The translations under genes and the position numbers were made by a program. Of a stretch of 64,000 bases of DNA, positions 7,800-52,025 are shown one piece after another (the first letter of the stretch is position 1; each line of letters starts with the position of its first letter). Under the pieces are notes generated by a model. The model saw only the letters and a program-made list of their open reading frames with translations. It ran no database searches and was not told the DNA's origin. This stretch comes from an uncultured Candidatus Saccharibacteria bacterium (lineage in GTDB: Bacteria; Patescibacteriota; Minisyncoccia; Phycocordibacterales; CAYRGE01), in NCBI GenBank assembly GCA_964612415.1, contig CAZTCT010000001.1, positions 71,955-135,954 on the forward strand. The letters are read 5' to 3'.

Positions 7800-9073
7800 T
7801 TTTCTGGTTGAGTTGGGTCATTGGAGACTTGAGCAGGATTACCAAACGCCGTTTGGTCTAATAGTACACGCCAGGGGAGCCCGTTTCTTTTATTGACGAA
7901 TGATATTGTAAGGTCATCTGCGTCAAGAGACAGGTTAATTGCGTCCATTGGGTCTCCTTCTTGATCAGAGAGCCCCACAATGCGCGTAGAATCTCCTGTG
8001 TCTGTGTTTATGCGCCACAGAGAGTCTGAAAATGACACCACACCTTGATACCAGTCATCAGGGTATTTTCCTGAAGGGACAGAGTCGGGTATCGCGCAGT
8101 AGATTACACTTGCCTCAACATTGCTCCATGTGCACTTCTCGGGCATGGTAAAGAAGTTAAAAGGAACATCTTGGCTAGATGCAACATCAAAAAGATGCAT
8201 TGTATACCCCGATTCACTTGCAAGGTAAAGTATTTTACTTACGTCCTTGTTCGCGATATCAGTTATACCTGGGACATTTGCGATTTTTCTTGAAAGAGAC
8301 CCAGACGATGCGCTCAAGGTGTACACATGCCCAGTTACCCCACTAGATGGCTTTGTTGAGAGCAAGAGAGTGTTTGTCGATGGCCACGAGACAAGCCATT
8401 CAGTAAACGGAGAAGAGAAAATCTGTCGGCGATTTGTCCCCTCAAAAGAAGAGATATTTCCCACTACACCAGAACTTGTTTTAACGAGATAAAAGAGATT
8501 GTTTCCTTGTGAGGAGAAGCCGACAATATTTTGCGGAAGGAAGACCCCAGATGTTTCTGTACTCGAAGTATCTCCAGCTGCGGGGAGTTTGAGTGCGTAT
8601 GTTTCAATTGTTGCTGTGTCACCATCACCACTTCTGCGGGTTGCCACATATGATGCATCAGACGACCAGACCGCATCTTGTACCCCAGGGATTGTTTCTA
8701 TGGACACCTGGTTCTCCTCTAGTGTAGACATACTTGTCTCGTATACATGACCAAGACCACGCTCTATATAGCGAACATAAGGAGTATCATTGTGAGTATA
8801 TGTTGTAAGGCTGGCTACGGGCACATTGTGTAGCTTGTAGAGAATCGGCTGACGCCCCTGCCCTCCACTGAAAATATCCTCTCCAGAAACCTGCTGATCA
8901 GTGTTTCCTTGCTGATCAGTGTTGGGTTGTTGCCCTTGTCCAAAAAAAGGAAAGAGGCCACTACCCCCTCCTTGCTCGCTTGAGCTTGAAAAAAGCATCC
9001 ATGCGGCTATTGCTCCACCCAAGAGTGCGACCAGAAGTATTATGTATGCCCATTTTTTTGATGATGTATTCAT
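7796..9073 (-). CDS. hypothetical membrane-anchored extracytoplasmic protein (N-terminal TM, Q/G-rich linker, repeat/propeller-like domain)
   Basis: 425 aa. It starts with MNTSSKKWAYIILLVALLGGAIAAWMLF, and a low-complexity GQGQQPNTDQQGNTDQQ linker follows. First gene of the minus-strand T4SS-like block. Confidence 0.6.
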   Translation of the reverse strand: MNTSSKKWAYIILLVALLGGAIAAWMLFSSSSEQGGGSGLFPFFGQGQQPNTDQQGNTDQQVSGEDIFSGGQGRQPILYKLHNVPVASLTTYTHNDTPYVRYIERGLGHVYETSMSTLEENQVSIETIPGVQDAVWSSDASYVATRRSGDGDTATIETYALKLPAAGDTSSTETSGVFLPQNIVGFSSQGNNLFYLVKTSSGVVGNISSFEGTNRRQIFSSPFTEWLVSWPSTNTLLLSTKPSSGVTGHVYTLSASSGSLSRKIANVPGITDIANKDVSKILYLASESGYTMHLFDVASSQDVPFNFFTMPEKCTWSNVEASVIYCAIPDSVPSGKYPDDWYQGVVSFSDSLWRINTDTGDSTRIVGLSDQEGDPMDAINLSLDADDLTISFVNKRNGLPWRVLLDQTAFGNPAQVSNDPTQPEN

Positions 9074-9082
9074 AGTCTGTGT

Positions 9083-9844
9083 CTATGGAGTTACTCGTAA
9101 AGCGCAACCGGTTATAACTTTCTTTGAGGCGTCCTTTGTGTATGTGGCATATGTTGCAGCGCAATTAGCAGGGTCCTCGTGTGAGCAATATGGCAGCACA
9201 TTCTCTGGGGATGTTATTGTCGAATAAGTGAAGCAGTAATCTTTTGATGCAGTATTAGGATGGAAAAAGCTCTCTGGGTGGCATCCAGCAGACAAAGGAC
9301 CACTGGGGAGTTTTTGCCCGCACTCATTGGGACCACCAAAACAAAGAACTGGAGAGCCGCTCGATGCCTGGTAGCAGTAACGTTCTTTGCCGGGGACGTC
9401 CCCGTACTGATTTTGGCCGCTTGCGTTAAGTCCCCCAGGGAGACTGAGCCCCACTGAACCACTCCCCAACTTGCCACCAGCGTCTCCAAACCCCACTAGG
9501 TCTGGGTTGATTGCACTGAGAATGACCCAGGCGCCCAAAGCAAGAATAAGGCCGAACAGCGCGTTCCTGATGCGTTCTTTTGCTGCTCCACGAAGAGACT
9601 CGTTTGCCCCAGAGGCAATGTATTGAAGTCCTGCGACGACAAGCATGACCACAGCGCCAATAGAAGCAATTCCAAGCACAAGAGAGAATATGATACCAAA
9701 GTAGTCAGCGAGGGTCGTTACTTGAGTCGTTCCAAAAATGGGCGCAAGAAGCGTATAAGCAAAGGCACTTTCTGGAAGCAACAATAAGAGTGGTATCCCC
9801 CCCCAACTCAGTACTTTTCCTAAATACTTCCTTCCTTTTTGCAT
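9083..9844 (-). CDS. VirB2/TrbC-like T4SS pilin (CPR-type) with cysteine-rich C-terminal extension
   Basis: It has a signal peptide and then two hydrophobic helices, DYFGIIFSLVLGIASIGAVVMLVVAGLQYIASGANESLRGAAKERIRNALFGLILALGAWVILSAI. This is the pattern of TrbC/VirB2-type pilins. The last ~120 aa contain about 10 Cys. Confidence 0.6.
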   Translation of the reverse strand: MQKGRKYLGKVLSWGGIPLLLLLPESAFAYTLLAPIFGTTQVTTLADYFGIIFSLVLGIASIGAVVMLVVAGLQYIASGANESLRGAAKERIRNALFGLILALGAWVILSAINPDLVGFGDAGGKLGSGSVGLSLPGGLNASGQNQYGDVPGKERYCYQASSGSPVLCFGGPNECGQKLPSGPLSAGCHPESFFHPNTASKDYCFTYSTITSPENVLPYCSHEDPANCAATYATYTKDASKKVITGCALRVTP

Positions 9845-32441: not shown

Positions 32442-33356
32442 ATGACACTTTCCGAGCTCAAAAAGCAATTTCTTGAATATCTTGAGATTGAACGCGGGCG
32501 AAGCATGAAGACGGTAGAAAATTATGATCGCTATGTCTCGCGGTTCCTTGAGCAGACGGGTGCTGCTTCCCCATCGGATATCACCGACGATACGGTGCGT
32601 ACATTTCGTCTCTGGCTCAATCGTCAGAAGACGATAGATTCAACGCTCAAAAAGCGCACACAAAATTATTATCTTATTGCCCTACGGGCGTTTCTCAAGT
32701 ACATGGCGTATAGAAACATCCCTTCCCTTCCTGCGTCACGCATTGAACTTGCAAAGACTCCTGGGCGTGAACTTGACCTTATCTCTGCAGATGAACTTGA
32801 GCGGTTGCTCGCTGCGCCCTCGGGCGATTCGCTCCAAGAGTTACGTGATCGCGCCCTCCTTGAGATGCTCTTCTCTACCGGGTTGCGCGTATCAGAGCTC
32901 TGTGGTCTTCCTCGCGACCTAGACCTCTCAAAAGACGAATTCTCTGTGCGTGGTAAGGGTGAAAAAGTGCGCGTAGTATTTCTCTCTGATACAGCAAAAG
33001 GGGCTCTCAAAAAATATCTTGCAGCTCGCAAGGATATAGACGATGCCATGTTTATTCGCCTAGGAAGAAAAGCAAGTACTGGGACGAAAAAGGGAGAAAA
33101 TTTGCGCATCACTCCCCGCTCGGTAGAGCGGCTTGTGGCGCACTATGCGATCAAAGCCGGTATTTCAAAAAAAGTAACTCCGCACGTTATACGGCATAGC
33201 TTCGCGACAGACCTTCTTTCAAATGGCGCAGATCTTCGCTCTGTACAAGCACTCCTTGGTCATTCAAATATCACTACCACACAGGTATATACGCACGTGA
33301 CAGACAAACAGCTACGCGAGATTCATAAAAATTTTCACGGCAAGAGGAGGAAATAA
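32442..33356 (+). CDS. tyrosine site-specific recombinase, XerC/XerD-like
   Basis: 304 aa, catalytic region HVIRHSFATDLLSNGADLRSVQALLGHSNITTTQVYTHV (R..H..R..Y). Confidence 0.85.
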   Translation: MTLSELKKQFLEYLEIERGRSMKTVENYDRYVSRFLEQTGAASPSDITDDTVRTFRLWLNRQKTIDSTLKKRTQNYYLIALRAFLKYMAYRNIPSLPASRIELAKTPGRELDLISADELERLLAAPSGDSLQELRDRALLEMLFSTGLRVSELCGLPRDLDLSKDEFSVRGKGEKVRVVFLSDTAKGALKKYLAARKDIDDAMFIRLGRKASTGTKKGENLRITPRSVERLVAHYAIKAGISKKVTPHVIRHSFATDLLSNGADLRSVQALLGHSNITTTQVYTHVTDKQLREIHKNFHGKRRK

Positions 33357-45491: not shown

Positions 45492-46469
45492 TTATGCAGG
45501 TATTGAACGGTATGCGTGACGGATCTCTTGCTCTGCAAGACCAGTCTCTTTCTCTGTAAGTATCGCGTTTACTAGCTGAACATTGTGCTTCTTTGTATTG
45601 AAATATGAAAAGAGGGGAGCAGGGGAGAAAAATTCAAGTACCGAGCGATCTCGCCAAAACGAAGCCGCTATCTCGTCGGACACGCGCTCAATGAGTGTGT
45701 GGTCGTGCGTTGTCTCGTATGCGCGAAGTGCGTCTTGCCAGCGAGCATTGCCTCCTATGCGAGCGAAGCATTCTACGATCTGTCCCTTTTCTGCCAACTC
45801 ATCTTCGCGGAAACGCCCACCCGATATGTAGAGACGAGGCACCTCTCGCTCTTTGAGGGTGATGTGGCGGAGTGCCGATTTTAGATTAAAGAGATCAACG
45901 AGAAGCGAGACGTATTCTGATACAGTCTTGTCTTTCTTTGTTTCGGCAAGTGCGCGGATGGTGGCAAAGTATGCTTTGTTCATGACTACATCAATCTCGA
46001 ACACCTCCTTTTGTTGCTCTGCTTGTGCTACAGCTCCTGCAAGCGCTATGTTGAGGTTGCGCAAAGTGTGTTCGGTGATGGAACGATAGAGTGCGTCCGG
46101 AGTGTATTTGCCGGAATTGAAGCACGCACGCTTTATCTCCTCCTCGGAGAGTTCTGCGCGCAGCCCTTTTACGATGGTGCTTGCGTTGTAGAAATCGTAT
46201 TTGAGCCAGAGGATATCAAAAAGTTCTGGATCTGGTGCGACTGATGTGATGAGATGCTTCGCATCGTCCACTACGCGTTCAAATGTTTCCGCAAGCGTAG
46301 CGCGGTCTTGTGAGGCGAGATAGGGAGAAAGAAATGTATCTTGCAATACTTTGTATGCTTCAGGCGCGTCTTTGGCAGCGAGCAATCGTTCCACTTGTGC
46401 CTGCGAGAGGAATGTTCTCTCAAGCGCCTTTATTCTTCCGCTTGCATATCCATACTCAGTCTTTCCCAT
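45492..46469 (-). CDS. ntpC: V/A-type ATPase subunit C (d-type)
   Basis: 325 aa, alpha-helical, in the conserved E-C-F-A-B-D order. Confidence 0.75.
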   Translation of the reverse strand: MGKTEYGYASGRIKALERTFLSQAQVERLLAAKDAPEAYKVLQDTFLSPYLASQDRATLAETFERVVDDAKHLITSVAPDPELFDILWLKYDFYNASTIVKGLRAELSEEEIKRACFNSGKYTPDALYRSITEHTLRNLNIALAGAVAQAEQQKEVFEIDVVMNKAYFATIRALAETKKDKTVSEYVSLLVDLFNLKSALRHITLKEREVPRLYISGGRFREDELAEKGQIVECFARIGGNARWQDALRAYETTHDHTLIERVSDEIAASFWRDRSVLEFFSPAPLFSYFNTKKHNVQLVNAILTEKETGLAEQEIRHAYRSIPA

Positions 46470-46470
46470 A

Positions 46471-47028
46471 TTATGAAAAAAGTATCTCTGCGATCTCCGG
46501 CTCCATCTTGTCTTTCGCGCGGGCGATGAGCGCAGGGAGTGTCGCGTCGTACTCGGTCTCTTTGCCTACAAAAAGAAATCCTCCAGAGATTTTCTTGTCA
46601 GCTTCCACAGAAAATCCCGCCTCAAACTTCTTAGCAATTTTCTTTACGAGCTTCTCGTGTGCGGGAGCGGTATGCGCAACACCCTCTTCTTTCTTGAGCG
46701 CCTTGATATGAGGAGAGAGGATCTTCTCAAGCGTGTCTTCATCGCCGGAAATATTCTCAAGCGCTTTCTGGTAAATCTCGTTTAAGATCGCGCGCTTCTC
46801 TGTATCGCGATACGACTGTACTTCTTGTTCTGCCTCAGCAAGAACACGCTCTTTGTTGAACGCGAGCATACGAGAAAGTTTTTCCTCGTGAGAAGCAGAG
46901 AGTGTACGAAGTTCTTCGTCGGTAGCTTTCTTGAGTTTTGCTACTTCATCGTTCGTTGACGAAGTGATGTTTCGTGCCTGCACCTCCGCCTCATCAATGA
47001 TCTTTTTTGTGAGGTCTTGAAGCGACAT
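46471..47028 (-). CDS. ntpE: V/A-type ATPase subunit E
   Basis: 185 aa, N-terminal coiled coil (MSLQDLTKKIIDEAEVQARNITSS...). Confidence 0.75.
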   Translation of the reverse strand: MSLQDLTKKIIDEAEVQARNITSSTNDEVAKLKKATDEELRTLSASHEEKLSRMLAFNKERVLAEAEQEVQSYRDTEKRAILNEIYQKALENISGDEDTLEKILSPHIKALKKEEGVAHTAPAHEKLVKKIAKKFEAGFSVEADKKISGGFLFVGKETEYDATLPALIARAKDKMEPEIAEILFS

Positions 47029-47036
47029 ATTCTAAG

Positions 47037-47513
47037 CTAAATGAGCGTAAGCAGAATAAAGGTAACGAGAAGCCCGAAGATGGCCCATGTTTCTACGAGC
47101 GCTGCGAGGATCATTCCGCGAGCCAAGAGAGAATCGTCTTTTGCGATCATGCCGACACCACTTGCGGCGACATTGCCGAGATAGATTCCCGCGAAGAGAC
47201 ATGAGAGTGCAAGAGGAAGAGAAGCGAGAAGATATGCAACACCAGTACCTGTGGTGATGATCTCACCACCCTCACCACCCAAGATGCCTGCGAAGTTTAA
47301 GATAAGAAACATTCCTACGAGTCCGTAGATACCCATTGATCCTGGAAGTGCCTGCATGAGGAGAAGTTTACCGAAAAGCTCTGGTCGCTCTGCTGTTGCG
47401 CCAGCGGCTGCACGACCTACGCGTTCCATGCCGATGGTTGATCCTATAAAGCTCAAAAGCGCCGCAATTCCGGCGCCGCCTACTACCAAAAGTGTCCCAA
47501 GTGTGAATTCCAT
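47037..47513 (-). CDS. ntpK: V/A-type ATPase proteolipid subunit K (c-ring)
   Basis: 158 aa, two hairpins of TM helices, conserved acidic residue in LVETWAIFGLLVTFILL. Confidence 0.85.
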   Translation of the reverse strand: MEFTLGTLLVVGGAGIAALLSFIGSTIGMERVGRAAAGATAERPELFGKLLLMQALPGSMGIYGLVGMFLILNFAGILGGEGGEIITTGTGVAYLLASLPLALSCLFAGIYLGNVAASGVGMIAKDDSLLARGMILAALVETWAIFGLLVTFILLTLI

Positions 47514-47549
47514 TGTCGCGGTATAAAAATAATTATAAATTACAAGGCT

Positions 47550-49487
47550 TTATTCGATCGCAATATAGCGTTCTTTGCGCTCAAATGGAGAGAATTTCCG
47601 CCCTGTTCCTGCGATAAACTTACCGAAAAATTCCACGAATTGCAAGCGAGCACTATGGATGAATCCGATAAGCGCTCCGATGACCAATGCAAATATGTGG
47701 CCCACCAAAAGGATGATTGCCATAAGGATGAATCCGACGTATGGGACGAGGTCATTTACAAGAAGTGCAATAAGGTTTACCGCAAAGGCGAGCGCTCCAG
47801 CGGCAAGTCCGAGTGCAAAGAGACGTGAGTACGAGAGAAGATCAGAAAGATACCCTACGCCGTGGTAGAGACCAGAGAGACCGTGTGAGAGCTTTTTGAA
47901 AATACCATGTTCATGACGGCCTTCAGTGACGACAATTGACGCAAGGGATGTGTAGAGCCACCATGTGTACCATTTTGCCTCACCGCCGACATAGCCTGCT
48001 TTGAAAAGCACGAATGCGATCAGGGCAGAGAAGAGGGAGAGCCATGGCACTTGCTTGAAGAGTCCATCAACAAGCTCGCCTTGCTTTGCCTTAGCGACAA
48101 TTTTCAAGAATACACCGAACATGATTTGGATGATACCGAGGGCAAGGGTGAAGAGAAGCACTACGATAGGACTTGTGATTGGGTTGAAGACGCGGATTGC
48201 CTCAAGTGTGTGGGATACGTGCTCTGCTTCTACGCCAAAGTATGCGCCGAAGAGAAATCCACCGATGATGGAGCTTGCTCCACAGAGCGCGAGAAGGGAG
48301 ATGAGCATGCGCATGCCTTGTGGGAGGCGCAAGAAGAAAAGTGCAGCAAGAGAAAGGACGAGAATCACTGTGCCGTGTCCTACGTCAGGAAGTGTCAGTC
48401 CAAAAAATACAAAAAAGAAAATTGCGAGGTAGACAGTCGGGTCCAAGTCGTGACCACTTGGAAGTCCATAAAGACGGGTGATTGTTTCAAATGGGCGGAG
48501 GAATGGATGATTTTTGATCTCAACTGGTGGCACCTCTCCTTCTTCAAGGGCGAGCTCTTCAACAGCAAACTCATTGGTGATATTGCCTATCTTCTCCTCT
48601 ATATCCTTGAGAGCGTTCTTGGGGCACCAGCCATCAAAGGCACGCACGGAGTCTGTACGAGACGCCGCCTGGATAAGTTCATGCTTTGTCTTGTTCCAGA
48701 ACATGTAATCGCTCATCACTTTGAGCTTAGGGAGGAATGGCAAAAATTGCTTAATCTCTGTTTCGTATTGCGTGCGGCGCTCGGTGAGTTCTTGCTCAGC
48801 CATTGTAAGTCGATCAAGTTCTTCTTGCGGTGTGCCGGATGCTCGGGGGAGTTCAACAGACTCAAGATCGTATTCTCTGCTCAGGCGAGCTACTGCATCT
48901 GCTGATTCCTTAAGAGAAGTAATGGAGAGATGTCCATTATTATCAGCAAGCTTTTCATAAGCGATGCCGTCCTCCTCTGTCTTTGCGAGGAATGCAGCGA
49001 TCTTCTCTTCTTTGCCCGAGAGAAGAAATGTTTTTGTGTGTGCCGTTTGGAAACCGTCGTGCAGTGATGCGTCAATGAATGCCCATGTAGAAAGAAGGAT
49101 TCGTTCTTCGCGCAGAGCATTTTGTTTTGCGAGGGTATCATTGAGGGACTCCTCAAGGTCTTGGAGGGAGTCAATGATGTCGTTGTAATGAAAATCTTTT
49201 GTGATACTCGCAAACTCTTGCTCGGATACAATAGTTTTGTCTCCTTCCTTGAGCGCGCGAACAAAACCTTTCTTTGGTTCAAACTGGGAGAGGAACTTCA
49301 CTGCAAAATCTAGGCGCCCACTTGCGTGGTGGATGACAGATGCCTCCTTCTCGTCCTCTTTAGACTTGGAGATGTTTGTGAGGGGGGTGAACTCTACCGC
49401 GCCCATTTTCTGGATCGCTGCGAGTACATCAGATGCCGCATTGCGGTGGACGTACAATCTGATTTTTTGCATTGCGACAGTCGCCAT
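47550..49487 (-). CDS. ntpI: V/A-type ATPase subunit I (a-type stator)
   Basis: 645 aa, soluble N-terminal half plus a C-terminal polytopic membrane domain. Confidence 0.85.
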   Translation of the reverse strand: MATVAMQKIRLYVHRNAASDVLAAIQKMGAVEFTPLTNISKSKEDEKEASVIHHASGRLDFAVKFLSQFEPKKGFVRALKEGDKTIVSEQEFASITKDFHYNDIIDSLQDLEESLNDTLAKQNALREERILLSTWAFIDASLHDGFQTAHTKTFLLSGKEEKIAAFLAKTEEDGIAYEKLADNNGHLSITSLKESADAVARLSREYDLESVELPRASGTPQEELDRLTMAEQELTERRTQYETEIKQFLPFLPKLKVMSDYMFWNKTKHELIQAASRTDSVRAFDGWCPKNALKDIEEKIGNITNEFAVEELALEEGEVPPVEIKNHPFLRPFETITRLYGLPSGHDLDPTVYLAIFFFVFFGLTLPDVGHGTVILVLSLAALFFLRLPQGMRMLISLLALCGASSIIGGFLFGAYFGVEAEHVSHTLEAIRVFNPITSPIVVLLFTLALGIIQIMFGVFLKIVAKAKQGELVDGLFKQVPWLSLFSALIAFVLFKAGYVGGEAKWYTWWLYTSLASIVVTEGRHEHGIFKKLSHGLSGLYHGVGYLSDLLSYSRLFALGLAAGALAFAVNLIALLVNDLVPYVGFILMAIILLVGHIFALVIGALIGFIHSARLQFVEFFGKFIAGTGRKFSPFERKERYIAIE

Positions 49488-49488
49488 A

Positions 49489-49797
49489 CTACGAAGAGGA
49501 AAGGGAAGAGATTACTTTTTTAATCGCACGATCACGCTTACCGATAGAGGCGGTCTTGAGAGCTTGTGCCTCCTTGCGCCCCTCCTCCACTGACGCCTTG
49601 TAGAGTTTGGCGAGATTTGCCTTCTGGGCGGCGAGCTCCTTGGCAACCTTATCTTTCAATTCGGTCTCTGTGTCAACAAGGCGAGTTTTCTCCGTTTTCT
49701 GGGTTTTCTCAAGAGTATTTGTCGCGTCGGCCTTGGCTTTCTCGATGATAGAGCGGGCTTTTTCCTCTGTTTTTGTGATTTCGTTTAGGTAACTCAT
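49489..49797 (-). CDS. V/A-type ATPase small coiled-coil subunit (G/H-like)
   Basis: Approximately 102 aa from the internal ATG (MSYLNEITKTEEKARSIIEKAKADA...), K/E-rich helix. First gene of the operon. Confidence 0.65.
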   Translation of the reverse strand: MSYLNEITKTEEKARSIIEKAKADATNTLEKTQKTEKTRLVDTETELKDKVAKELAAQKANLAKLYKASVEEGRKEAQALKTASIGKRDRAIKKVISSLSSS

Positions 49798-49877
49798 AGT
49801 GATGTAAGCCAAACTATAGCATTGAGGATGCTTTTCTTCAATTATTGGCGCGTAGGGGGGGGGAGGGGTTGATTTGG

Positions 49878-49905
49878 TTGACAATCATATCTCACCCGCT
49901 ATACT
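49878..49905 (+). promoter_or_regulatory. sigma-70-like promoter TTGACA-16-TATACT in the divergent region upstream of the V-ATPase operon
   Basis: TTGACA at 49878..49883, TATACT at 49900..49905. Confidence 0.4.
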
Positions 49906-50003: not shown

Positions 50004-50102
50004 ATGGACCAAGACGATACACAGAAGGATGAAGGGATGACCACTGAAGAGGAGACCACTTCTTCAGAGGAAACTTCCACCGAAGGAGAGGCTGCGATGT
50101 AA
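50004..50102 (+). CDS. 32-aa highly acidic micro-protein (MDQDDTQKDEGMTTEEETTSSEETSTEGEAAM)
   Basis: ATG with AGGGA 15 nt upstream. It has its own upstream promoter and a terminator at 50134..50168. Confidence 0.3.
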   Translation: MDQDDTQKDEGMTTEEETTSSEETSTEGEAAM

Positions 50103-50133
50103 ATCAAAGCTCTCTAGTTATAAAAGAGACACC

Positions 50134-50276: not shown

Positions 50277-50350
50277 GCGGGCATAGTTTAGTGGTAGAAT
50301 GACTGCCTTCCAAGCAGTAGATGAGAGTTCGATTCTCTCTGCCCGCACCA
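50277..50350 (+). tRNA. tRNA-Gly (anticodon TCC), CCA encoded
   Basis: GCGGGCATAGTTTAGTGGTAGAATGACTGCCTTCCAAGCAGTAGATGAGAGTTCGATTCTCTCTGCCCGCACCA, anticodon loop CTTCCAA. Confidence 0.9.
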
Positions 50351-50352
50351 GG

Positions 50353-50388
50353 ATAAAATTGCCGGCTTCATGCTGGCAATTTTATTTT
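50353..50388 (+). terminator. hairpin ATAAAATTGCCGGC-TTCAT-GCTGGCAATTTTAT + U-tract directly after tRNA-Gly(TCC)
   Basis: 14-bp stem with one G-U pair. Confidence 0.6.
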
Positions 50389-50528
50389 CTGTTGAGTAGG
50401 GAGAATCGAACAGGGAAGGGGCCGGGAAACGGAAGTTTCCGTGAAGGAAGGCAGGACGAAGTCCATCGGAAAACCGTGGGTTTCCGAGGAGTGAGATAGC
50501 GAAACGTCTCTCTGCCCGCACCATAAAC

Positions 50529-50557
50529 AAAAACACCCCGCGATGCGGGGTGTTTTT
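50529..50557. terminator. bidirectional terminator AAAAACACCCCGC-GAT-GCGGGGTGTTTTT
   Basis: Perfect palindrome between the tRNA locus (+) and hup (-). Confidence 0.7.
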
Positions 50558-50574
50558 GTGAAGTGAGATGAAAC

Positions 50575-50847
50575 TTACTTAACTGCGTCCTTGAGCGCCT
50601 TAGCGGCTCGGAACTTGGGTACGCGCATAGAGGGAACCTGGATAGATTCGCCTGTCTTTGGGTTGCGTGCGGTGCGAGCTGCGCGGGTCTTCACCGAGAA
50701 GATGCCGAGTCCTGCAATAGAAACCTCGTCACCCTTCTTGAGAGTGTCGGTGATAATACCAATGATACGATCAACAATGCGCTCTGCTTGCGCCTTGGTG
50801 CCGCCCAGTTCCTGGTGCACCGCTTCTACGATTCCATTTTTGTTCAT
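50575..50847 (-). CDS. hup: HU-family DNA-binding protein
   Basis: 90 aa, MNKNGIVEAVHQ...GDEVSIAGLGIFSVKTRAARTARNPKTGESIQVPSMRVPKFRAAKALKDAV. Confidence 0.9.
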   Translation of the reverse strand: MNKNGIVEAVHQELGGTKAQAERIVDRIIGIITDTLKKGDEVSIAGLGIFSVKTRAARTARNPKTGESIQVPSMRVPKFRAAKALKDAVK

Positions 50848-51005: not shown

Positions 51006-52025
51006 TCAGCGGACTTCTCCCGAAGAGGCATCAATAATAACAGAGCCACCTTTCTCTAAAATTTGTAAATATTCGCTTCTCTCAACCAATGATTTTGGTG
51101 CAGCAAGGACATTTTCGTAAGATTTCTCTAAATTAAAAGCGGATGCTCGCACCTCTACAAGTGTTGGCTCTACTAGGCGAGTTGATATGCCCAAAAACAT
51201 ATAATCTGAAGGGAAGAGAGTGCGCAGGTCGTGGATTTTTTTGCCTGACGCTTTCCCAATATCTGGGCGCCACTCGAAGATAACTGCTGGCTTGGCGGTA
51301 AATCCCTTTTGGAATCCCTGGAGAGCCTCATATTCTTTACCTTCAATATCAATTTTCAGAGCAGAGACATGCTTTATGCCATGAGAATCTAAAATTGCAT
51401 CAAGCGTTGAGAGGGGAACTGTGTAAGAATCCGACGGTACTCGCGAATCATTCCAGTGTTTGTTGACCGATGAAGCGCCAACATTTCCATTCGGAGAAAA
51501 GATAGACGTTGTATTGCCTCGGGAAACCTCATCGGGGGAGCCTACCGCGCATTCAACCACGGTGTATCGCATCGGAAAATTTTGCGCGATATTTCGCTTA
51601 AGATCTGAAGCAATACGAGGGTTTGCCTCAATGCCAAGAACCTCAATTTTATTTTTTGCTAGAGGTAGTGATGTTGAGCCAATGTTTGCTCCCACATCAA
51701 CATATGTACCAGGAGCCCATGACTGAGCAAGAATACCTAGGGCTGGTGGAGTTGTGTCAAAGTATCCATGTACGTAAAGCTTCCACCCTATGTGGTCATT
51801 AATATCTACAAAGTATTTTTCACCCCAAATTCCCCGGACTTCTTTGTGAAGTGGCTTAAAGCCCACCTGGATCCTCTTGCGGATTTCATTTGGGTCAAAT
51901 CGTCTATCCAAAAATTTTGATATAAATTTTACCCGCAGGATTATCATTCTTGCGGTAGCAAGTGCGAGCTTATTTCTAAGAATTGACGCAAGCAAATAGG
52001 TGGAATTCTCTAAAGAGTGAAGCAT
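51006..52025 (-). CDS. FkbM-family methyltransferase-like protein
   Basis: 339 aa, YVDVGANIGSTSLPLA...GIEANP and KIDIEGKEYEAL motifs typical of FkbM-type SAM methyltransferases. Confidence 0.55.
   Translation of the reverse strand: MLHSLENSTYLLASILRNKLALATARMIILRVKFISKFLDRRFDPNEIRKRIQVGFKPLHKEVRGIWGEKYFVDINDHIGWKLYVHGYFDTTPPALGILAQSWAPGTYVDVGANIGSTSLPLAKNKIEVLGIEANPRIASDLKRNIAQNFPMRYTVVECAVGSPDEVSRGNTTSIFSPNGNVGASSVNKHWNDSRVPSDSYTVPLSTLDAILDSHGIKHVSALKIDIEGKEYEALQGFQKGFTAKPAVIFEWRPDIGKASGKKIHDLRTLFPSDYMFLGISTRLVEPTLVEVRASAFNLEKSYENVLAAPKSLVERSEYLQILEKGGSVIIDASSGEVR

Follow-up and report, generated by a model that had tools for sequence, protein, structure and literature searches.

The DNA analysed here (the window) is a 64,000-nucleotide stretch of contig CAZTCT010000001.1 from an uncultured Candidatus Saccharibacteria bacterium, and our subject is a short, geneless segment that it carries between a tRNA-Gly(TCC) gene and a convergent HU gene. 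The tRNA gene (50277-50350, plus strand), called by ARAGORN and scored at 75.2 bits by the Rfam tRNA model, is intact and encodes its CCA. Its last 17 nt, TCTCTCTGCCCGCACCA (50334-50350), comprise the last base of the T-loop, the 3' strands of the T-stem and acceptor stem, and ACCA; the same 17 nt recur without a mismatch, and in the same orientation, at 50507-50523. Between the two copies lie, on the plus strand and in this order, a terminator hairpin followed by a T-tract (50352-50386); an 18-nt arm, GAGTAGGGAGAATCGAAC (50394-50411), which reads as the reverse complement of the 3' end of a CTCCC/TAC-type tRNA-Gly; a purine-rich middle of 81 nt with two predicted hairpins (50412-50492); and a 14-nt motif, GAGATAGCGAAACG (50493-50506), which adjoins the second copy and occurs again at 38389-38402, beside tRNA-Gly(GCC). 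A bidirectional terminator (50527-50559) then serves both the tRNA gene and the HU gene (50575-50847, minus strand). Taken as 50351-50523 the segment measures 173 bp, and the ambiguity of the repeat allows any 173-bp frame within 50334-50523.

An exact tRNA-end repeat bounds the segment

TCTCTCTGCCCGCACCA occurs exactly twice in the window. At up to three mismatches its sole further match is the 3' end of tRNA-Gly(GCC), where shuffled sequence gave a mean of 0.17 matches; for the adjoining motif, a 16-mer, GAGATAGYGAAACGTC, has two perfect matches in the window, and 4 matches at up to three mismatches against a shuffle mean of 0.61. A preliminary description of this DNA had noticed the 17-nt match, which is real, and had read it as part of a 31-nt degenerate copy of the tRNA end. 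The last 17-18 nt are indeed tRNA-derived, but the first 14 nt are GAGATAGCGAAACG, a separate motif. Nor does the T-stem pairing that had been described as kept (GAGAU/GUCUC) set the copy apart: it is worth -4.3 kcal/mol, 61 of 200 shuffles fold equally well, and the pairing is broken in the sister copy described below (GAGAT...GTCCC).

Might the downstream copy be the remnant of a decayed tandem tRNA-Gly duplicate, or a repeat that arose by chance? A pseudogene would account for a 3' end that is identical to that of the tRNA and lies in the same orientation, but nothing in 50351-50506 resembles the 5' two-thirds of the tRNA, and the 14 nt upstream of the copy are shared with the other Gly locus and not with the T-arm. 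The expectation for a second copy of a 17-mer is negligible. We regard both explanations as scarcely credible and, for practical purposes, ruled out.

The terminators that had been reported on both sides of the segment are strong hairpins. The first folds at -20.7 kcal/mol (z = -6.5 against shuffles) and the second at -25.3 kcal/mol (z = -7.8), with a layout of A-tract, hairpin and T-tract. They are unrelated in sequence: the first shares its CTTCATG loop and A/T-rich stem with 38201-38237, which follows tRNA-Gly(GCC), and the second lies just before AAGTGAGATG and the HU stop codon. The only open reading frames (ORFs) across the 173-bp interval run beyond it into the tRNA gene, and the purine-rich middle gave no BLAST or nhmmer match in the window, in the loci fetched from relatives or in phages.

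The 173 bp are absent from syntenic relatives

Relatives were represented by contigs fetched around homologues of the window's HU gene; by the names under which these homologues are recorded, they place the window in Paceibacteria/Parcubacteria of the candidate phyla radiation (CPR). One of them, L016, encodes an HU 78% identical to that of the window and has the same gene order, namely a V-type ATPase operon, an acidic ORF of 31-32 aa, tRNA-Gly(TCC) and the convergent HU gene. There the tRNA gene is followed by one bidirectional terminator and then by AAGTGAGATG and the HU stop codon, and the flank downstream of the window's second repeat copy aligns with this spacer. In L032, too, tRNA, single terminator and HU gene succeed one another, and both contigs lack the 173 bp; the spacer between tRNA and HU gene is 224 nt long in the window, 111 nt in L032 and 61 nt in L016. 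Because the second terminator of the window occupies the place of the single terminator in L016, 50351-50523 is additional DNA, with the tRNA end as a direct repeat at its limits. The first terminator, which is absent from L016 and L032 and aligns with its counterpart at the GCC locus, is borne by the insert. The native bidirectional terminator comes next, so the tRNA gene's original 3' end, now displaced, is most likely the downstream repeat copy.

The distribution of such repeats is sporadic. Nothing similar follows either Gly tRNA in L009 or L032, and L016 likewise lacks the insert; in L013 a decayed 3'-end copy, CGATTCcCCtTGCCCGCA, remains about 95 nt beyond tRNA-Gly(TCC), and an element related to those of the window is present in L003. 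Among all tRNAs of the fetched loci, these repeats are found only at Gly tRNAs of some lineages. In the window, as had been stated, tRNA-Arg and tRNA-Pro have no such duplicates, although the spacer between tRNA-Arg and tRNA-Gly(GCC) does hold a related repeat module. Because relatives lack the element, carry a related one or keep a decayed one, and because the T-loop is the point at which a strain 99.88% identical to the window departs from it, the 3' ends of Gly tRNAs are recurrent insertion or recombination sites, as the preliminary description had proposed. An identical locus free of indels in all relatives, which it had named as the refuting outcome, was not what the relatives showed. The integrase-bounded islands that it had envisaged were not found at these tRNA-Gly sites in the relatives examined, and the insert itself is 173 bp long and geneless.

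On balance, we think it somewhat more probable than not that a geneless insertion of 173 bp at the 3' end of tRNA-Gly(TCC) has its far limit at the downstream copy, and that the insertion is a miniature or decayed, non-autonomous integrative element. The locus would then read as an intact tRNA gene, a terminator brought in by the insert, an inverted tRNA-Gly end, the 81-nt middle, GAGATAGCGAAACG, the displaced tRNA 3' end and the native terminator shared with HU. Such an element would have integrated site-specifically into the tRNA gene (tDNA), with a crossover in the T-loop/T-stem region, and its reduced form would be explained either by a recombinase acting in trans on a non-autonomous element or by descent from a larger element of which it is the stump. 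The empty site would have joined ...GCACCA to TAAACAAAAAC, and a circle or excision junction would read GAAACG-TCTCTCTGCCCGCACCA-GGATAAAA.

The fetched contigs differ from the window in other ways around HU. In L014 the gap between tRNA-Gly(TCC) and HU is filled by 1.3 kb (8274-9595) with two ORFs of 170 and 174 aa, and no tRNA-end repeat is detectable there; a Pfam search of the ORFs in this gap in L014, L009 and L013 found no mobile-element domains, and the two L014 ORFs had no Pfam match. The V-type ATPase operon of the window (about 39300-49900) lies between tRNA-Pro and tRNA-Gly(TCC), and that of L016 also adjoins tRNA-Gly(TCC); in L009, L014 and L032 the Arg, Gly-GCC, Pro and Gly-TCC tRNAs are clustered within about 3 kb beside HU. 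The arrangement in the window looks like an insertion or rearrangement of about 10 kb at the tRNA cluster. An FkbM-family methyltransferase gene (51006-52025, minus strand) stands between RNase Y and HU only in the species of the window, to which L001 and L002 also belong; in all the other relatives fetched, RNase Y is directly followed by HU. Just upstream of tRNA-Gly(TCC), 50005-50103 is a very acidic 32-codon ORF, MDQDDTQKDEGMTTEEETTSSEETSTEGEAAM, with its own terminator, and a similar ORF of 31 aa was called at the same position in L016.

The insert belongs to a small family at tRNA-Gly genes

The insert also contains a feature that the preliminary description had overlooked, the 18-nt inverted copy of a tRNA-Gly 3' end at 50394-50411. 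This arm matches the reverse complement of the tRNA-Gly(TCC) 3' end of another species (L003-L006) at 18 of 18 positions and that of the window's tRNA-Gly(GCC) at 16 of 16, and shares with the resident tRNA-Gly(TCC) only an 11-nt stretch of T-loop and T-stem, GAGAATCGAAC. Because it matches the other tRNA-Gly type throughout and the resident gene over 11 nt only, the resident gene was not the template of the arm, whose sequence argues for an origin at another tRNA-Gly site. Together, the tRNA end, the first terminator and the arm make up one long imperfect palindrome around the terminator loop (50385-50326, E = 1.4e-4).

A sister element (38201-38409, plus strand) follows the window's tRNA-Gly(GCC) gene (38127-38200); it is supported by its fold, by its homology with the L003 element and by a 15-nt direct repeat of the tRNA end. 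It consists of a terminator, a 5' arm GTGGGGTAG, a side hairpin AGCAAGC..TTTGCG, GGGGAATCGAA, a two-hairpin module (38281-38370), a direct copy of the tRNA that begins at C56 of the T-loop (CGATTCTCCCTACCCCGC, 38371-38388), GAGATAGTGAAACG and a decayed copy, TCCCCCTA. The two Gly-locus elements have their left ends in common (the CTTCATG terminator loop and TGAGTRGGG), and also their right ends (GAGATAGYGAAACG and the tRNA-end copy).

A further element lies after the tRNA-Gly(TCC) of a single species that was recovered from five samples (L003-L006 and L028; HU 82% identical). The element of L003 is collinear with window 38201-38409 over about 170 nt, its only nhmmer match in the window (E = 1e-6; reciprocal search, 5e-7), and the two are homologs that reside at different tRNA-Gly genes in different species. 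The L003 element ends in CTTACTCGCACCA, which matches the acceptor strand of that species' own tRNA.

The module is found apart from the elements as well. A free-standing copy (38011-38108, plus strand; identified by nhmmer, fold z = -3.3) occupies the spacer between tRNA-Arg and tRNA-Gly(GCC), which is about 100 nt longer in the window than in L009 and L032. The module, about 95 nt long and not in Rfam, has the form GGGCGCAGCGATG-hairpin-CCGCGAGCCGGGGTCGCG-hairpin-TGTGACC, is 90 nt long in the sister element and has a diverged homologue in L003 (8553-8644, minus strand); nhmmer found no more copies of the module or the arm in the window or the fetched loci. The insert is one of a small family whose members recur at tRNA-Gly genes in Paceibacteria: they were seen at both Gly isoacceptors of the window and at tRNA-Gly(TCC) of the species of L003, and L013 keeps a decayed trace. 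Newer copies probably pile up upstream of older ones.

Further along the GCC locus, 38553-38597 (AAAACTGTGGATAAGTGGGTGGATATGTGTATAAAAGACAGG) holds a DnaA-box-like sequence, TGTGGATAA. L009 and L032 have kept this stretch ahead of their UPF0102 gene, where the rest of the spacer cannot be aligned. It had no Rfam match and may be a small RNA or a site with a role in regulation or at an origin.

The palindrome around the first terminator invites an explanation that needs no mobile element. Template switching at the terminator hairpin and the palindromic T-arm could have produced a direct-inverted-direct triplication (a tandem inversion duplication) whose junctions were later remodelled. The order of direct copy, terminator, inverted copy and direct copy is what this would leave; a long palindrome is centred on the terminator loop at the GCC locus too, and when the module is taken out of the junction GAATCGAA/CGATTC there, what remains is a near-perfect palindrome with the T-loop's TCGA, itself self-complementary, in the middle. 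But the two direct copies are followed by different, unrelated terminators, and copy 2 does not repeat the downstream flank of copy 1, an observation on which we rejected a tandem inversion duplication. The arm matches the other type of tRNA-Gly and not the resident one. Further, the terminator loop, the side hairpin, the module and GAGATAGYGAAACG, none of which is tRNA sequence, are common to different loci and to different species, an outcome that independent local events cannot yield. We consider a purely local origin very unlikely.

A near-identical strain departs from the window inside the T-loop

L001, a Logan contig (ERR15459717), is 99.88% identical to the window over 6518 nt and leaves it exactly at 50329/50330, between T-loop positions 55 and 56, where module-like DNA (...TTGTGAC) abuts CGATTCTCTCTGCCCGCACCA. 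The last 27 nt of the contig (6519-6545), GCGACAAAAGACTTAGTAACTTGTGAC, are a third, partial copy of the module, with 2 differences in 27 from 38082-38108, and the junction TGTGAC|CGATTC of L001 is also present in the window at 38370/38371. Because the stretch in common is 21 nt, shorter than the assembler's k-mer, the join seen in L001 should exist in reads. Contigs that approach from the opposite side in three samples stop inside tRNA-Gly(TCC), and L002 starts in the middle of the element, at window position 50474.

These observations suggest a recent rearrangement at this point of the T-loop. It is possible that a second, module-bearing element integrated upstream of the 173-bp one, as tandem accretion, and it is also possible that, in that strain, the module lies within the T-loop of the tRNA. 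If the tandem reading applies, the GCC locus of the window resembles this array of two elements after an internal deletion, which would explain why GAGATAGYGAAACG and a tRNA-end copy close both Gly loci.

The elements fold in a strand-specific manner

Structures were compared as single-sequence folds (MAFFT and RNAalifold, run on two or three sequences, gave no usable consensus). In the minimum free energy (MFE) and centroid folds of the insert, G50391 closes with C50519 and ACCA is left single-stranded, with 50394-50404 paired to 50507-50517 at 10 of 11 positions when G.U is counted; the two differences in the pairing of the arm with resident copy 2 are transitions, one from G-C to G.U and one from A-U to G.U. 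The arms of the sister elements form 17-18 bp and match their own local acceptor stems: at the GCC locus GTGGGGTAG and CUACCCCGC have a matching extra G and C, and in L003 the pair is GAGAGUA/UACUCGC. The L003 element is predicted to form a cloverleaf-like four-way junction that ends in ACCA, although the tRNA gene of that species has no encoded CCA.

On the tRNA-sense strand each of the three elements folds 10-19 kcal/mol more stably than on the other (-77.8/-58.7, -41.9/-32.2 and -65.6/-51.8 kcal/mol), with better z-scores too; at the GCC locus these are -5.5 on the plus strand and -3.3 on the minus strand. For the element of the 173-bp insert the fold is not better than that of shuffles (z = -1.14, 21 of 200). 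Hairpin 1 of the module has the same layout in its three copies, with a 3-bp outer stem, an internal loop, a middle stem of 3-4 bp and an apical hairpin, even though the pairs differ, and the base of hairpin 2 keeps two G.U pairs in both window copies. From these models, which span two independent lineages only, the folding speaks for a constraint that acts on a single strand, whether RNA or single-stranded DNA.

Such a constraint would be expected if the segment were a tRNA-linked small RNA gene, as the preliminary description had also suggested. The gene would yield a transcript of about 133 nt (50391-50523) whose 5' end and tRNA-like 3' end form, in the model, a 12-13-bp helix that mimics the stacked acceptor and T stems and leaves ACCA free. 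It would be released by RNase P and 3' trimming from a read-through or a separate transcript, and it might be a substrate or decoy for the CCA-adding enzyme, GlyRS or other tRNA-binding proteins; the repeat would then exist because the RNA must resemble the neighbouring tRNA. The predicted closure of the insert, the ACCA of the L003 cloverleaf, arms that track the local acceptor sequence, the better folds on the tRNA-sense strand, the kept hairpin architecture with its conserved G.U pairs and the presence of a terminator after the 3' end are all consistent with this. Against it stand the shuffle result for the 173-bp element, the absence of a T-loop and of a convincing promoter, the lack of an Rfam family match at E up to 10, and the strong terminator that separates tRNA and element. 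Moreover, close relatives do without the element, the three family members have no common middle, the copy at the GCC locus lacks ACCA, and only two independent lineages show the covariation. We hold a small RNA gene to be possible but doubtful.

Database searches brought out no further relatives. Rfam models returned tRNAs only, both at the gathering score over the whole window and at E up to 10 over the two Gly loci; the best non-tRNA match, asX2, reached 28.7 bits against a gathering score of 70 and was driven by a terminator. ARAGORN found four tRNAs only in the window. Likenesses spotted by eye, to a hammerhead ribozyme (GAAAC/GUC), to the signal recognition particle RNA (GAAGGAAG) and to a CRISPR repeat (...GAAAC with a tRNA-matching 'spacer'), were dropped, since no model supported them and there is no cas or reverse transcriptase context. 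A scan of species-representative genomes for GAGATAGNGAAACGTCYCYC gave 11 matches in unrelated phyla, none of them in the window's own species, and about as many as chance would give. In JGI metagenomes the pattern of 5' arm and side hairpin recovered only the contig already known as L004, and scans of viral contigs and BLAST against phages found no relatives. Because the Rfam, viral, phage, genome and metagenome searches gave nothing more, the family is either narrow or too divergent for exact patterns.

Discussion

The 173-bp segment is an insertion relative to syntenic relatives and is framed by a tRNA-end repeat, and we favour a miniature or decayed integrative element as its source. Several observations weigh against this. 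There is no integrase or other ORF in the insert, and no integrase beside it among the ORFs listed at 46-54 kb; its length is far below that of known integrative elements, and a duplex of this size is probably too small to form a circle. In viral contigs, species-representative genomes and JGI metagenomes, scanned with exact patterns, and in phage genomes, searched with BLAST, there was no full-length relative with these ends. Even where acceptor positions are specific to the lineage, the two copies of the repeat agree, so an element that came from elsewhere would need an attP that matches, a crossover close to the 3' end or a subsequent gene conversion. A terminator of L003 (8693-8735) that is about 83% identical to the native one of the window (50527-50559) lies between tRNA and element, so a simple attL/attR picture does not fit that locus. 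Further, the covariation of the arms with the local acceptor stem and the preservation of the module hairpins through compensatory changes and G.U pairs count against the favoured reading, because plain decaying scars would show neither.

A Xer-like gene at 32442-33356 is the only recombinase gene noticed among the ORFs listed at 33-41.5 kb and 46-54 kb. We rejected it as evidence for an island; L014 has a recombinase counterpart at the syntenic position.

Transfer RNA genes are classic landing sites for integrases. The occupant of tRNA-Gly here is a geneless, structured unit of 173 bp, and its host lineage has very small genomes in which few mobile elements can be recognised. Should such units be moved in trans, no smaller site-specific integrative element would have been described, and they would mark mobile DNA that otherwise goes unseen in Paceibacteria; should they be RNAs, they would form a new class of tRNA-mimicking RNA. 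In practice, metagenome assemblies are broken at tRNA-Gly by repeats of this kind, and programs that look for islands discard the units because they demand an integrase and at least 2 kb. Going further, one could speculate that they make up a distinct type of miniature mobile element in the CPR: geneless units of about 170-190 nt that home to the T-loop/3' end of tRNA-Gly and fold, on the tRNA-sense strand, into a hairpin mimicking the acceptor/T minihelix of their target, either as a folded single-strand recombination substrate, like attC or CTX attP, or as a processed tRNA-like RNA. In its extreme form, the module at 55/56 would be an intervening sequence inside the T-loop of a bacterial tRNA. 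We consider this generalization rather unlikely. The tRNA introns of Patescibacteria, group I introns at position 35/36, were considered as a parallel and found not relevant.

Among known systems, the closest signature is that of genomic islands and prophages, which tyrosine integrases insert into tRNA or tmRNA genes. For integrative islands, a tRNA gene plus displaced fragment, crossovers in the T-loop or at the T/acceptor junction, and tandem arrays are established, and the Islander criteria define them by a tRNA gene with a cognate 3' fragment, a tyrosine integrase gene inside and a length of 2-200 kb (PMC4383910). Like such islands, the locus has an intact tRNA gene and, downstream, a displaced 3' fragment in the same orientation (both copies on the plus strand); the block of identity runs from the T-loop/T-stem to the 3' end of the tRNA, the insert is absent at the same site in L016 and L032, and there are hints of tandem accretion. 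Unlike them, it contains no integrase and no gene, measures 173 bp instead of 2-200 kb, carries an inverted tRNA-end copy and has secondary structure that is conserved among family members. Because an integrase is absent and 173 bp falls short of the 2-kb minimum, we file the insert as working like a tDNA-integrating element and not as a member of the island class.

Cis-mobilizable elements (CIMEs) are kilobases long, flanked by att sites, devoid of an integrase and derived from identifiable integrative and conjugative elements, and in principle they can be moved by a recombinase in trans. The insert resembles CIMEs and att remnants in being short DNA without an integrase that lies between attL- and attR-like repeats, at a place that integrative elements use. 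Elements of the window's type are about ten times smaller, however, are structurally conserved and have no known parent, and exact patterns found no autonomous element with the same att site in viral contigs, phages, genomes or metagenomes.

Miniature inverted-repeat transposable elements (MITEs) and repeats like the repetitive extragenic palindromes share with the family the lack of genes, a length of 100-200 bp, putative terminal inverted arms and hairpins kept by compensatory change; as with them, one genome holds several copies (two of the module in the window, and a partial third in L001). Here, however, the arms copy the end of the target tRNA, in place of terminal inverted repeats that bind a transposase, and the flanking repeat is a 17-nt tRNA end where MITEs have a short target-site duplication. 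The association with tRNA genes is strict, no cognate transposase was seen, and no further dispersed copies were found in the window or the fetched loci.

The remaining parallels are with folded nucleic acids. The tRNA-like domain of transfer-messenger RNA and viral tRNA-like structures have counterparts in the modelled closing helix of about 12 bp, in the ACCA end and in the position beside a tRNA gene in the same sense. The insert differs from both in lacking a T-loop, D/T-loop motifs and an Rfam match, and in a helix with mismatches. Folded single-strand recombination sites are known from integrons (attC) and from CTX phage, whose attP hairpin is used by XerCD. Although no integron integrase, dif-like site or single-stranded replicon has been identified with the insert, its imperfect, strand-specific hairpin would by analogy resemble such sites, with the arm and the 3' copy together imitating the T-loop-to-acceptor segment of the tRNA gene.

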